Shown in pieces: positions 45,682-50,393 of a stretch of DNA of 64,000 nt. Made by a program: the position numbers and the translations under genes. The DNA is from an uncultured Methanoregulaceae archaeon (lineage in GTDB: Archaea; Halobacteriota; Methanomicrobia; Methanomicrobiales; Methanospirillaceae). The stretch is from assembly GCA_963737635.1 (NCBI GenBank), contig CAVTTL010000001.1:896001-960000 (forward strand), read 5' to 3'. Each line of letters begins with the position of its first letter. The first letter of the stretch is position 1. The notes beneath the pieces are model-generated. The model searched no databases. It worked only from the letters and a program-made list of their open reading frames with translations, and was not told where the DNA came from.

Positions 45682-46839
45682 ATGGCCTATAAGAGTTTGT
45701 GTGCGGTAAAAGGAGTCACCGCAAACGGTATTAAGGAAGGAAAGTTCGGTCTCGCCCTTATCCGGGCAAGTGGAACAGCGGCAGGCGTGTTCACATCGAA
45801 TCTTGCCAAGGCGGCACCGATTGAACTGATGCGAAAGCAGATTAAAAAAGGAAAACTGGACGCGGTGATCGCAAACAGCGGTTGCGCCAATGCCTATACC
45901 GGCAAGAGGGGATACGAAGACGCTGTTACCATGACAGACTATGCCGGATCCGCACTGGGCGTGGATGGTACCTCGGTCGGCGTGGCAAGCACCGGTGTTA
46001 TCGGCAGGTACCTTGATCTGCCCTTAATCCGGCGCCAGTGCGCGGATGTTGCGCTCAACCTTACTTCAACGCCGGATGCAGAGGACCGGGCGGTCCGGGC
46101 GATCATGACCACGGATCTCCATCCCAAACATGCGCTGGTCGAAAAGGAAGGTTTCACCATCGGGGCGATTGCCAAAGGAAGCGGCATGATCGCACCCAAC
46201 ATGGGTACCATGCTCGCGTTCATCTATACTGATGCGGAGATTGGGGCAAAGCCTCTCAGGGAGACGCTCAGGCAGGCGACAGCCCGGACATTCAACCGTG
46301 TCGTTGTGGACGGCGACACGAGTACCAACGACATCGCACTCTGCATTGCAACTGGTGAATCCGGGAAAGTAAATCTCGGGGAATTCTCCACCGCGCTCGA
46401 GGCGTGCTGCCGCTCGCTTGCGCAGCAGATCGCAGCCGACGGCGAAGGTGCAAGCAAGCTGCTCGAAGTCACCGTCCGGGGCGCCCCAAAAGAGGAGGCT
46501 GCCGCAAAAGTGGCCCGGGTCGTGATCGAATCGCCGCTCGTGAAGACGGCGGTATACGGTGAGGACCCCAACTGGGGCCGGGTCATTGCTGCGGCAGGCC
46601 GCGCCGGCGTAAAATTTGACCCTAACGCGGTCTCCCTCTGGATCAGCGATGGGAACAACCAGTATCCCCTGGTAAAATCCGGCGAGATCATTGCCGATCT
46701 GACAAAGGCCAAGGCTGCGATGCACGGTGACAAGGTTATTTTCGTGCTCGATCTTGGGGCCGGAAAAGAAGAAGCCACAGCATGGGGCTGCGACCTCACG
46801 GAAAAGTATGTCGAGATCAACGGGAGGTACACAACATGA
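45682..46839 (+). CDS. argJ: Ornithine acetyltransferase / N-acetylglutamate synthase
   Basis: [49 protein letters not shown]. Confidence 0.96.
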
Positions 46840-47711
46840 TGAAACGCGAGGACGTCCTGATGGAAGCCCTTCCTTACATCCAGCAGTTCCACGGTAAAAC
46901 GATCGTTATCAAGCTCGGGGGGCACGCGATGGTCGATCCGGTCGTCCTTGAAAACGCTATAAAGGACGCCGTCCTCCTCCATTATGTCGGGATCCACGTC
47001 GTGCTTGTCCATGGCGGGGGACCGGAAATCACCGAGAAGATGAAGGCCCTCGGAAAGGAATCGGTCTTTGTAGGGGGGCTTCGGGTCACCGATCAGGAAA
47101 CGCTCGAGATCGCCCAGATGGTGCTCGTCGGTAAGATTAACAAGGGAATCATCTCCCTGATTGCAAAATGCGGTGCAAAAGGCGTGGGGCTCTCGGGAAG
47201 CGACGGGAACATTATTATCGCAAAGAAAATGGATCTCCAGAAGATCAACGTGGAGGGTGTGGAACAGGAAGTCGACCTTGGGCGTGTCGGTGAGATCGAA
47301 TGGATCGATCCCGAGCTGCTCAATATCCTTCTTGAACGGGGGTATATCCCGGTTATCTCCCCGATTGCTATCGACCGGAATGGGGGGAATCTCAACATTA
47401 ACGCAGATACCGCCGCAGGGGACATTGCTGTCGCACTCAAGGCATACAAGCTGATCAACATGACCGATGTCGACGGCGTGATGGATGCGAAGCGAACCCA
47501 TGTTTTCCGTAAGCTCTCCATCAATGAGGCCCATTCTCTTCTTTCATCTGGCGCCATCGGCGAGGGAATGATCCCAAAAGTGACTTCGGTGATAAAAGCA
47601 GTGGAGAATGGTGTCCGCTATGCCCATATTATCAACGGCAACGTGGAGCACAACCTCATCCTCGAACTCTTCACCCATGAGGGTGTGGGGACAATGATCT
47701 CCCTCCAGTAG
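46836..47711 (+). CDS. argB: Acetylglutamate kinase
   Basis: [35 protein letters not shown]. Confidence 0.96.
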
Positions 47712-47788
47712 GTTTTTTTGCCGCTGCGGCAACATTCATGTGCCAAAAGATCAATATTCCAGCACAATAAGCGGACAGGTGTCACCGG

Positions 47789-48193
47789 ATGGACAAGGTC
47801 ATAAAATTCGTTATTGCACTGTTTGTGATTATCGCTCTTGGAAGCCTTGCGTATGTTCTTTTTTCCGCCCCGGCATCTTCTTCCGGTACGACCTCGGCCG
47901 CAAACGATACTATCGTCTATTATTTCTATGGCCAGGGATGCCCGCACTGCGCAAAGGTTGAGCCATTCATGGAGAATATGACAAAAGAATATCCTGATGT
48001 CGATATCCGGATGCTCGAAGTCTGGTATAACCAGACCAACCAGCAGATCTATGCTCAGGTGAATGCGCAAGCAGGCATCTCCACACCACCGGGAGTACCT
48101 GAAATTGTCATCGGCAAAACGGTCCTTGTTGGAGAAGTTGATATCCCTGCAAAACTCGAAGGATACCTCCAGGCCATCGAAAAAAAAAAGTAA
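47789..48193 (+). CDS. Membrane-anchored thioredoxin/glutaredoxin-fold protein (possibly the N-terminus of a longer fusion)
   Basis: N-terminal hydrophobic anchor, FYGQGCPHC, GVP cis-Pro motif; ends EKKK-stop on an A10 run. Confidence 0.8.
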   Translation: MDKVIKFVIALFVIIALGSLAYVLFSAPASSSGTTSAANDTIVYYFYGQGCPHCAKVEPFMENMTKEYPDVDIRMLEVWYNQTNQQIYAQVNAQAGISTPPGVPEIVIGKTVLVGEVDIPAKLEGYLQAIEKKK

Positions 48194-48201
48194 CCCCTGA
48201 T

Positions 48202-49271
48202 TTGTCAGGAGCGAAAAACCAGTCCTCAATCTCATCCCTCGGAACAGATCTGAATCGCACGGTTGTCGGGTACTTTTTCTACGGCGACGGGTGCAGCCAC
48301 TGCGATAATATAAAACCGTTTATTTCGGAAATACAATCCCGCTACCCGGATCTCGATCTCGAGCAGCTCGAGGTCTACCACAACGCCACCAACCAGGCCC
48401 TTTTCCTTGGGATGGATCAAAAGCTTGGCATACCTTCCGCAGGAGTCCCCACCATCATTATCGGCGACCATGTTCTCGTTGGCGAGGATCAGATCCGGAA
48501 CCAGCTGGAGCAGGTAATTCAGGAGGAACAGGCATCTCCCGCAAGTGCGGCACAGGGAAATGTAACCTCAGCCAAAAACTGCCCGGTACCTTCACGACCC
48601 TGACCGTGCCACTGGTGATCTTCTGTGCAGGAATAGACAGCATTAACCCCTGTGCATTCTCGGTCCTGATCATTCTCCTGCTCTCCATCATCGCTCTCCA
48701 GACCCGCCGACAGGTGCTGATGGTAGGAATCACGTACATCGCCGCGGTTTTCTTGTTTTATTTCATCTCCGGTATCGGTGTCCTCTCCTTTGTGCATGTT
48801 TCCGGGGTTTCAAGCCTGATATCACAGGCAGCGGCGATTATTGCCATCGTCCTTGGTTTAGTTTATATCGTTGATGCAGCGGTGAAGAAGGAGGGATTTA
48901 TCCTTGCCATTCCCGCCTCGAAAAAACCGGTAATCGAGCGCTATATCATGACTGCAACGCTTCCCGCTGCTTTTGTCCTTGGCGTCCTTGTGGGTATCTT
49001 TGAACTTCCCTGCACCGGGGGAATCTACCTGACTATTCTCAGCCTGATAAGTAATACCCTTACCCTTTCAGAAGGAATTCCCTACCTGCTCCTCTATAAC
49101 TTTATCTTCGTCATGCCGCTCATCCTGATCCTTATTGCTGTTGTCGTAGGTATACCTCCCGAACGGGTCAATGCGTGGAGAATGGAGAACCGCCGGAAGC
49201 TCCGGTTTGTTATTGGCTTCGCTATGATTCTTGTTGGGATCTTCATCTTCTTTGGCCCCCTCTTCTTGTAA
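48202..49271 (+). CDS. Thioredoxin-fold domain plus CcdA/DsbD-beta membrane domain; apparent frameshift near 48590
   Basis: FYGDGCSHC...GVP, then DSINPCAF and ELPCTGGIY with about 6 TM segments. Confidence 0.8.
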
Positions 49272-49338
49272 AAAATGCCGGGGAAATTCCCGTTTTTTCC
49301 GGATAAAAAAAACAGAGAATAAGGTTTGTAAATATTAT

Positions 49339-49636
49339 TTACGGGCTGTTTTTTTTCGGCATGGGTTTTTCCAGGGCAGCCCGTTGTGCTTTCTCGTTCA
49401 TGGCGATAAGGGTCTCAAATATTGCCTTGATCGGGACTGGATCGATATGGTTTGCCTTTGAGAGTTTCATCACGTATTCGAGTACGTCGAGTTTGCGCTG
49501 GTTGTCATGGACCGGTATTCCCCGCTCCTGTTTGATGGCGGCGATTTTTCCGGCAAGGCTCTGCCCGGTGTGCGATGAGGTGGATAATCTCCTCATCGAT
49601 CTGGGTTATCTCCGCCCGGATCTCTTCAATTGTCAT
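49339..49636 (-). CDS. Chorismate mutase (AroQ type); apparent frameshift near 49565
   Basis: MTIEEIRAEITQIDEEIIHLIAHR/QSLAGKIAAIK...PVHDNQR...Q. Confidence 0.82.
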
Positions 49637-49739
49637 AGGGAAGTACATTGCAGGAAAAAGTGATAAACGTGATGATGCGCTGTGGTACCCTACACGAAAA
49701 CACATATGACAGAAACGCACTATCTGATCCAGTGGTTTC

Positions 49740-50393
49740 ATGCTTGGAAAAATTACACGGCGCGAGGAATATGATCTTTTTGCTGCATGGCTGGCAGTAT
49801 CCCTTTCGTTTGCAATCATCAAACTGGCACCATACGGTGTTCTTGGTCCTATACAGCCCGTCGAACCGATGATTGCCCTGACTTATCTTGTTATTGCCCT
49901 TCTCACCGTGGGGATAGGTCTGGTGCTGCATGAACTGGCGCATAAATTCGCCGCCATAAAATACGGGTTCTGGGCTGAGTTCAGGAAAAGCAACTTCATG
50001 CTGCTCGTGGCAATTGCCCTTGCGGCGTTGGTGGGATTTGTGTTTGCTGCACCAGGCGCAACCGTGATCTCCAGCGTCAGGCCTGACGGAAGGCAGCTCA
50101 GCCGTGAAGAAAACGGGAAGATATCTGCAGCCGGGCCACTCACGAACCTCCTTCTCTGTATACCGTTTGCCTTCCTTCTTCTTGTCAGCGGAGGCCTCTC
50201 CCTCTCTCCGGGAAGCCTCCTCAGCCAGATTGGTATATTCGGGATCCAGATCAATGCCATGATCGCCGCATTCAACATGCTTCCGATCAGTATCCTTGAT
50301 GGGAACAAGGTTTTGTCCTGGAACATACCTGTTTTCGTGATACTGCTCGGGGTGTCATTCAGCCTGCTTGTGAGCTCTTTTTATATCCTCTGA
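49740..50393 (+). CDS. M50 family (site-2) zinc metalloprotease
   Basis: HELAH, FAAPGA, AGP, FNMLP..LDG. Confidence 0.88.
   Translation: MLGKITRREEYDLFAAWLAVSLSFAIIKLAPYGVLGPIQPVEPMIALTYLVIALLTVGIGLVLHELAHKFAAIKYGFWAEFRKSNFMLLVAIALAALVGFVFAAPGATVISSVRPDGRQLSREENGKISAAGPLTNLLLCIPFAFLLLVSGGLSLSPGSLLSQIGIFGIQINAMIAAFNMLPISILDGNKVLSWNIPVFVILLGVSFSLLVSSFYIL

Follow-up and report, generated by a model that had tools for sequence, protein, structure and literature searches.

A conserved run of adenines in Methanoregula and the probable production of an anchored thioredoxin and a thioredoxin-thioredoxin-CcdA-like fusion from one gene

The window analyzed here is a stretch of 64,000 nucleotides (nt) from an uncultured Methanoregulaceae archaeon (contig CAVTTL010000001.1, positions 896,001 to 960,000), and the locus of interest within it encodes two thioredoxin-like domains (Trx1 and Trx2) and a membrane domain resembling CcdA and DsbD, with a run of ten adenines (A10) at the point where the reading frame changes. 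A previous inspection of the letters alone, referred to below as the sequence-only reading, had proposed that a -1 frameshift at this run yields both a free thioredoxin and a Trx-Trx-CcdA fusion. The features of the locus, in positions of the window, are the following:

47789..48193, + strand: Trx1 open reading frame (ORF1), 0 frame, 134 amino acids (aa), taken from the ORF list; it matches Pfam Thioredoxin PF00085 with 26.3 bits, against a cut-off of 23.5.
47804..47860, + strand: hydrophobic N-terminal segment of Trx1, a signal anchor or signal peptide; maximum 19-aa Kyte-Doolittle hydropathy 2.77.
47939..47950, + strand: Trx1 active-site motif CPHC, from the translation; kept in the orthologues.
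48180..48189, + strand: A10 tract, the proposed recoding site, from the sequence; no indel in the bridging contigs.
48191..48193, + strand: TAA stop of the 0 frame, 1 nt past the A10 tract, from the sequence and the ORF list.
48190..48584, + strand: linker and Trx2 in the -1 frame, without a leader, from the translation.
48196..48209, + strand: hairpin CCTGA-TTTG-TCAGG, judged to lie outside the mechanism; present in the minimum free energy (MFE) fold of a region with z = +0.22.
48292..48303, + strand: Trx2 active-site motif CSHC, from the translation; its cysteines are invariant in the alignment.
48584..48585, + strand: missing G (GG should be GGG), an assembly error, from the contigs of runs X2 and X3 and from the orthologues.
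48585..49271, + strand: CcdA/DsbD-like six-helix membrane domain, from the ORF list and the translation; conserved cysteines in NPC and LPCTGG.

Without a frame change, the product of the locus is Trx1, a signal-anchored thioredoxin-like protein. As had been read from the letters, the Trx1 ORF ends in GAA AAA AAA AAG TAA with the A_AAA_AAG heptamer in phase, and the -1 frame continues as KKKVTPDLSG... into the CSHC domain, which indeed has no hydrophobic leader and carries N-X-S/T sequons. The same frame had been taken to run on into the CcdA domain. As assembled it does not, since it meets a TGA at 48601-48603, and the membrane domain (48606-49271) lies in a further -1 frame. The assembled window therefore contains two -1 breaks, one at the A tract and one near 48585, the latter of which had gone unnoticed.

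The two breaks were examined in Logan contigs from four DNA runs, each belonging to a different study, aligned to positions 47700-49300. Because the contigs of run X2 (depth 12.6) and run X3 (depth 6.18) carry an extra G behind 48584, the second frame break is an assembly error. The added G turns ..NCPVPSRP and a stop into ..NCPGTFTTL.., as in the orthologues, which have a single open frame of 359-382 aa, and with this correction the passage from Trx2 into the membrane domain holds. The A10 tract itself is bridged without any indel by contigs of X2 (47891-49300), X6 (47902-48479), and X7 (48094-48533), which extend 31 nt or more past it in both directions; the X7 contig belongs to a relative with 30 substitutions, and X2 may be the source sample. 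Run X3 was left out of this count because its pieces end within or near the tract. The tract is thus A10 in the DNA, not A11 and not an assembly error, and the warning of the sequence-only reading about indels in this assembly was justified at 48584/85 but not at the tract.

For comparison, 108 species-representative Methanoregula genomes were searched, the membrane domain was found in 101 of them, and 108 Methanoregula loci were retrieved. The frame relation was classed around the longest A run (at least 4) lying between two adjacent Trx motifs. Among the 70 loci classed by this procedure, 63 showed the -1 relation, 7 were in frame, and none was +1; the tract had at least nine A's in all 63 of the -1 loci. 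A further 48 loci were set aside by the motif filter, and inspection of part of these by eye revealed six more -1 loci with A9 or A10 (L013, L050, L051, L095, L093, and L094). The -1 layout with an unbroken A9-A11 tract is therefore present in 69 of the 108 Methanoregula loci, and the +1 layout in none. Tract lengths in these 69 loci are A9 (42 loci), A10 (25), and A11 (2), and the orthologous Trx1 ORFs end in ..KKK in 69 genomes. The other 32 loci of the genus are single-Trx, two-gene, or contig-end-cut forms, part of which were inspected individually. Genomes with the -1 layout include some assembled in one contig with 99% completeness (G020 and G092), as well as genomes in many contigs. In the sister loci L004 and L031, which differ by AAG versus AAA, the G-to-A substitution lengthens the run and leaves the frame unchanged.

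Outside the genus, neither the tract nor the -1 layout was found in any of the 28 loci that were resolved in other genera of the order, a count that leaves aside L011, L118, and L120, whose layout could not be resolved. In 20 loci of these other genera the homologue has its own start and its own anchor, two of the 20 have two in-frame Trx domains, and an A run of at least 8 is found in none.

Since the loci L042 and L131 carry extra downstream indels, the detailed features of the junction were taken from the 67 resolved -1 loci. The first A of the tract occupies codon position 1, 2, or 3 in 15, 22, and 30 loci, respectively, and the tract is followed by G (46 loci), C (17), or T (4). All codon phases are represented and the next base varies, so it is the length of the tract that is conserved, and not its phase or context. 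An in-phase A_AAA_AAR/N heptamer is found in all 67 loci. The stop of the 0 frame lies 0-16 nt past the tract, and in 13 genomes the interval between the last stop of the -1 frame and the stop of the 0 frame is 10 nt, i.e., the tract itself. In 51 of the 67 loci, ATG, GTG, and TTG are all absent from the -1 frame ahead of the CxxC motif of Trx2, and an ATG occurs there in two.

The source genome, G000, has a G+C content of 51.6% and contains 45 A/T runs of at least 9 nt in 2.46 Mb. Among these 45, the A10 run stood out for having long open frames on both sides, a -1 relation between them, and an immediate stop in the 0 frame. For eight of the other runs, the translations were inspected by eye, and none of these runs resembled a two-domain junction; the rest were judged by open-frame length. 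Most of the eight lie at the ends of ORFs or between ORFs. Long open frames in different frames on both sides were seen at C1:475527, C1:716319, and C1:1984669, which may be assembly indels or chance.

In the long ORFs of G000, AAA makes up 54% of the Lys codons, yet only 5 of 48 KKK triplets begin with AAA-AAA, which shows avoidance of runs of this kind; the codons TTA and ATA are rare, with 5% of the Leu codons and 13% of the Ile codons, respectively. The codon preceding the tract is GAA in every phase-2 locus and mostly TTA or ATA in the phase-3 loci, so that the run stays at nine or more while neighboring synonymous sites vary freely. Judged by this codon usage, the A tract is maintained at the nucleotide level against the codon habits of the genome.

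No comparable conservation was seen in the RNA structure downstream of the tract. The 81 nt from 48190 to 48270 in the window fold no better than shuffled sequences, with the z-score listed above for the hairpin region. Over the 60 nt past 70 junctions, the mean z was -0.53, z was below -2 in 7 of the 70, and the structures were unrelated between loci. A conserved 3' hairpin or stimulator was accordingly rejected as a candidate. Of what the sequence-only reading expected to find in orthologues, the KKK end and the -1 phase recur in the 69 genomes; the hairpin, which is indeed present 5 nt past the heptamer and belongs to the MFE fold, is neither conserved nor unusually stable, and among the listed junctions it occurs only in L001 and L022. 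For conserved elements upstream of the tract, the analysis consisted of inspection.

Both soluble domains have the thioredoxin fold. The active-site motif of Trx1, CPHC, is of the DsbA type. Trx2 scores 19.2 bits with PF00085, below the cut-off of 23.5; its residues C39 and C42 and the cis-proline P91 are invariant in 84 sequences, and the AlphaFold2 model of the orthologue L003 (pLDDT 83) contains a complete Trx fold at residues 29-120, which superimposes on thioredoxins with Z 11.3 and rmsd 1.6 over 81 aligned residues. The two domains differ in what precedes them. Across 61 loci, the 19-aa hydropathy of the Trx1 leader has a median of 2.93 and a minimum of 2.46, and that of the Trx2 linker a median of 0.10 and a maximum of 0.73, the hydrophobic N-terminus of Trx1 being the sole export signal at the locus. 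Sequons of the N-X-S/T type are found in 49 of the 61 Trx2 linkers.

The model of the membrane domain has six helices (pLDDT 82). In 64 sequences, N19-P20-C21 and C141 are invariant and T142 and G143 nearly so (consensus ELPCTGG); in the window, the conserved cysteines of NPC and LPCTGG are at 48651-48653 and 49011-49013, respectively. There is thus one cysteine in each half of the domain, in a Pro-Cys context, as in the CcdA/DsbD transporters, and relatives are named in the databases 'cytochrome c biogenesis protein CcdA/thioredoxin' or 'GAP family protein'. The best Pfam match is to SfLAP (PF11139; 36.5 bits, cut-off 35), with no match to Pfam DsbD; a profile search of the PDB sequences with the alignment of the membrane domain gave no match at E up to 10, and Foldseek and VIA-align searches with the whole Trx2-CcdA model gave matches to the Trx domain only. 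The matches obtained to the expected superfamily are weak and speak against a confident assignment: 21.8 bits with NCBIfam DsbD (cut-off 330, E 6e-5); CcdA 5VKV as the top Foldseek match in the PDB, with E 0.21, probability 0.87, and TM 0.40/0.41 over 229 columns; and the same structure at rank 35 in VIA-align, with Z 5.5 and rmsd 5.1 over 175 aligned residues. Solved CcdA consists of six helices arranged as two inverted three-helix repeats. On these weak matches, the membrane domain is read as a thiol-disulfide conduit of the CcdA/DsbD superfamily with tandem extracytoplasmic Trx domains. Loops rich in K/R (QTRRQ, KKEG..SKKP, and ENRRKLR) follow helices 1, 3, and 5, and according to the positive-inside rule, which is well established, the N-terminus of the membrane domain, and hence Trx2, would be outside the cell.

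In public gene calls, the second ORF has 305-314 aa and starts past the CxxC motif, with the loss of half of the Trx fold. As these calls begin beyond the catalytic motif, the protein in the databases is truncated and probably a form that does not exist.

Other arrangements of the same domains are found within Methanoregula. Seven congeners are in frame, with two or three Trx domains, and six have two genes (L108, L109, L124-L126, and L128); in the latter, Trx1 ends without a long tract, and Trx2-CcdA starts with MEKTQK... followed by a hydrophobic helix. Single-Trx forms of the genus likewise have their own start accompanied by their own anchor, and in all the homologues with an own start, whether two-gene, single-Trx, or from other genera, an own anchor is always present. 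The orthologues are thus neither uniformly fused nor uniformly provided with an independent second gene, either of which the sequence-only reading would have counted against itself. The in-frame junction of L102 reads KKKVTRNTP and matches the KKKVTP.. predicted across the frames of the window. In-frame proteins with two Trx domains (about 490-536 aa) and three (602-643 aa) are common in public data, which shows a fusion of this kind to be viable. Both alternative frames of L102 and L110 are closed at once by stops; these two loci would by default make the fusion, with the short protein as the product of slippage.

A quick maximum-likelihood tree of the membrane domain (IQ-TREE) showed -1 forms throughout the Methanoregula clade of 88 rows, with the in-frame, two-gene, and single forms nested inside it. 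Within the genus, the recoded layout seems to be ancient, and it has been resolved several times since then, in different ways. Some individual loci depart further from the common plan. In L111 (G048, locus 740-1954), Trx1, with CPHC and ending ..ELKKKTVSDGQ.., is fused in frame to the membrane domain without Trx2, and so the membrane module is apparently able to function with one Trx domain or the other. Second copies of the locus, L098 (G042:C43) and L101 (G081:C25), encode three tandem Trx domains and the membrane domain in frame, in proteins of 635 and 648 aa, respectively, and metagenomes contain many similar proteins of 602-643 aa.

Judging from the layout of these genes, a single Methanoregula gene is the probable source of two proteins, a short anchored thioredoxin and a Trx-Trx-membrane fusion. 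Standard decoding would give the 134-aa Trx1 (CPHC), N-terminally anchored and extracytoplasmic, which ends just past the A9-A11 tract. A certain proportion of expression events would include a move of the frame to -1 inside the tract, resulting in a fusion of approximately 494 aa that consists of the anchor, Trx1, Trx2 (CSHC), and the CcdA-like membrane domain. Such a fusion would be needed because Trx2-CcdA has neither a start codon nor an export signal of its own. Only the anchor of Trx1 could place both Trx domains outside the membrane, with the first helix of the membrane domain running from outside to inside. The fusion may then act as a DsbD-like conduit that would carry reducing equivalents out of the cytoplasm, by way of the two membrane cysteines, and on to Trx2 and Trx1, and the separate anchored Trx1 would be its diffusible partner, in a ratio set by the frequency of slippage. 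The comparison of 69 genomes supports what the sequence-only reading had proposed, a short Trx and a Trx-Trx-CcdA fusion from one locus through a -1 change at the A tract, except that the short product could hardly be called free, given its N-terminal hydrophobic anchor or signal.

As the most likely way of changing frame, we propose, tentatively, that RNA polymerase slips on the conserved A9-A11 tract and adds one A to some of the transcripts, the two products arising from the two kinds of message. Slippage of the polymerase is favored by the minimum of A9 in 69 of 69 loci, by the indifference to codon phase and 3' base, and by the absence of a conserved stimulator. In many genomes, runs prone to slippage begin to be selected against at a length of nine nt, and the dnaX gene of Thermus thermophilus uses A9 (PMC1088944). 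With the same reserve, and short of an even chance, this would be the first conserved case of transcriptional realignment in a cellular archaeal gene, one that would keep the two products at a fixed ratio and give an export anchor to a thiol-reducing module that has neither start nor signal.

Several points weigh against polymerase slippage, or against a change of frame altogether. Every tract of at least nine A's necessarily holds an in-phase A_AAA_AAA/G, and -1 slippage of the ribosome therefore explains the layout too. In E. coli reporters, poly-A frameshifting rises with tract length, the two mechanisms not being separated there (PMC3711429), and no report of an archaeal RNA polymerase slipping on A9-A11 in vivo was found in the literature searched. 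Among the runs containing positions 47700-49300, no RNA run was listed. We infer from the genes both that the shift occurs and by what mechanism, and likewise the direction of electron flow and the substrates. A GTG, TTG, or ATG precedes the CxxC motif of Trx2 in 16 of the 67 loci, including the window, in which the TTG at 48202 is the sole canonical start for the Trx2 frame. Lastly, the in-frame loci L047 and L052 have A7 (-2 nt), L102 has A10, and L110 has A11 (+1 nt in both), which means that the tract also changes its length in DNA, or is miscalled in assemblies.

The same two products could be made by programmed -1 ribosomal frameshifting, through tandem or P-site slippage on A_AAA_AAG or A_AAA_AAA, a serious possibility that stands close behind slippage of the polymerase. 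It agrees with the heptamer present in phase in every resolved locus, with the G that follows the tract in 46 of 67, and with the position of the 0-frame stop, 0-16 nt downstream. A nearby stop can aid ribosomal shifting. In archaea, frameshifting in a cellular gene has been proven only for fucA1, at A_AAA_AAT (PMC8211752), and archaeal Mg-chelatase genes with A_AAA_AAR overlaps have been proposed as frameshift sites (PMC5009743, PMC3711429). However, a heptamer would need only 6-8 A's, and yet all 69 of the -1 loci have at least nine; the phase and the 3' base vary, and downstream structure is neither conserved nor unusually stable, in the window or over the 70 junctions. Of the heptamer-plus-stem arrangement to which the sequence-only reading had given first place, the heptamer stands and the conserved stem does not, and its second suggestion, transcriptional slippage, fits somewhat better.

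It is unlikely that there is no recoding at all, and that Trx1 and Trx2-CcdA are translated separately, for instance from a non-canonical start or by reinitiation past the ORF1 stop, or that the N-terminal portion of Trx2 is a relic in decay, with some other reason behind the maintenance of the tract. Such a reading could draw on the 16 loci with a possible start between the tract and CxxC, on the six congeners that truly have two genes, and on the annotation pipelines, which call two genes. It is difficult to reconcile with the 51 loci that have no canonical start and nevertheless keep the CxxC, the cis-proline, and the whole Trx2 fold. Translated alone, Trx2-CcdA would also be without a leader, although the homologues with a start of their own all have an anchor of their own, and the conservation of the tract at the nucleotide level, against the codon habits of the genome, would be left without explanation.

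Phase variation in the DNA, in which the tract would gain and lose A's during replication, cells would switch between a split (off) and a fused (on) state, and the assemblies would mostly have caught the off state, is very improbable. Long A tracts are mutable, and in four in-frame congeners the length of the tract (A7, A7, A10, and A11) is all that separates them from the -1 layout; against this, species-level genomes show the -1 state in 69 loci and the +1 state in none, contigs of the same species from three studies all have A10 (although contigs drop rare variants), and the substitution between L004 and L031 lengthens the run without changing the frame. Least credible of all is a sequencing or assembly artefact concealing a true A11 and one ordinary ORF, for although the assembly has indel errors, such as the missing G at 48584/85, and a neighboring gene similar to chorismate mutase is split, this reading is refuted as far as the contigs of X2, X6, and X7 show, the frame layout is identical in 68 other genomes from many assemblies, and the loci with A11, or with an A replacing the following G, keep the -1 relation.

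Upstream of the Trx locus in the window are, on the + strand, ORFs similar to argJ (45682-46839) and argB (46782-47711). The Trx locus also follows argB in the orthologues L002, L003, L017, L020, and L111, and its position is syntenic across the different layouts. Downstream, on the - strand, the chorismate-mutase-like gene (49339-49822) is split into the overlapping ORFs 49505-49822 and 49339-49596, while its orthologue in L003 is a single ORF of 164 aa (2240-2734, - strand); the break, near 49575-49600 at a CCC/GGG run, is probably an assembly indel. Additional breaks in Trx1, Trx2, or the membrane domain were observed in L032, L037, L042, L045, and L131 (genomes G107, G109, G112, G108, and G017, respectively). 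These genomes have few contigs and low completeness, and close relatives lack such breaks, which look like the homopolymer indels of long reads, as in G000.

Recoding in archaea is barely charted, and the site described here is a rare candidate, kept in 69 species-level genomes of one genus. The genus includes cultured methanogens with finished genomes and is therefore accessible to tests at the bench, for which it also offers natural controls in the form of in-frame fusions, two-gene forms in which Trx2-CcdA has an anchor, and variants in tract length. The locus draws attention to a thiol-redox system outside the cytoplasm, so far unexplored, in methanogens that would have no cytochrome c to mature, the host order not being known to contain c-type cytochromes. 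It also bears on annotation, since the public start of the second protein, past the CxxC motif, is probably misplaced.

The DsbD, ScsB, and CcdA proteins, the last with partners of the ResA or TlpA type, combine a membrane core that has one cysteine in each half-domain with extracytoplasmic domains of the thioredoxin fold. Unlike in these proteins, the Trx domains of Methanoregula are N-terminal and in tandem, their motifs are CPHC and CSHC, and the scores with the DsbD and CcdA models are far below the cut-offs.

With respect to the change of frame, a review of 2021 gives one demonstrated cellular -1 frameshift in archaea and a few suggestions (PMC8211752). No earlier report of the Methanoregula A-tract site was found in the literature searched, which did not include one supplement of PMC3711429 where a Methanoregula cluster might be listed. 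The closest known case is the dnaX gene of T. thermophilus, a bacterium, in which transcriptional slippage on A9 gives the tau and gamma products; as proposed for Methanoregula, an A tract of nine within a coding region is associated with two products, one long and one short, at a defined ratio, and no RNA structure is required (PMC1088944). In contrast to that gene, in which the templated frame leads to the long product and slippage to the short one, the templated frame of 69 Methanoregula genomes leads to the short product, the reverse being seen only in L102 and L110; the Methanoregula site is, moreover, archaeal, and its slippage is a proposal drawn from gene sequences.

The sites of E. 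coli dnaX and of the IS3 family use a 3' stem-loop or pseudoknot together with an upstream element similar to a Shine-Dalgarno sequence. The Methanoregula junctions differ from them in having no conserved structure and a tract that is always longer than the heptamer; they resemble them in the in-phase A_AAA_AAG, a heptamer listed among frameshift motifs (PMC3711429), and in the -1 direction. In the copA gene of E. coli, a -1 shift gives a 70-aa copper chaperone besides the transporter, and there, as proposed for Methanoregula, a small soluble or partner domain is made along with the membrane protein that contains it (PMC5009743). However, the shift in copA truncates the product and the one in Methanoregula would extend it, and the former concerns copper handling and the latter thiol-disulfide exchange.

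Among archaeal genes, fucA1 of Saccharolobus solfataricus is likewise split into two ORFs in a -1 relation at an A-rich slippery site (A_AAA_AAT), and its full-length relatives differ by the length of the tract (PMC8211752). Unlike in Methanoregula, only the fusion is thought to be useful in fucA1, the split is confined to a small number of strains, and the site has a stem-loop and rare codons on its flanks (PMC8211752); the Methanoregula split is kept in 69 species-level genomes, and its short product is a complete domain. The Mg/Co-chelatase gene chlD, including those of Methanococcus and Methanocaldococcus, has -1 overlaps at poly-A tracts of 7-11 that are conserved across genera, with a short and a long subunit proposed to come from one mRNA and, in E. 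coli reporters, a higher efficiency for longer tracts (PMC3711429, PMC5009743, PMC9227772). It belongs to a different protein family, and downstream structures have been described for it, none being conserved in Methanoregula. The use of poly-A recoding for obtaining two products is thus already known from dnaX, copA, chlD, and fucA1, and the Methanoregula site is a well-supported addition to these examples.

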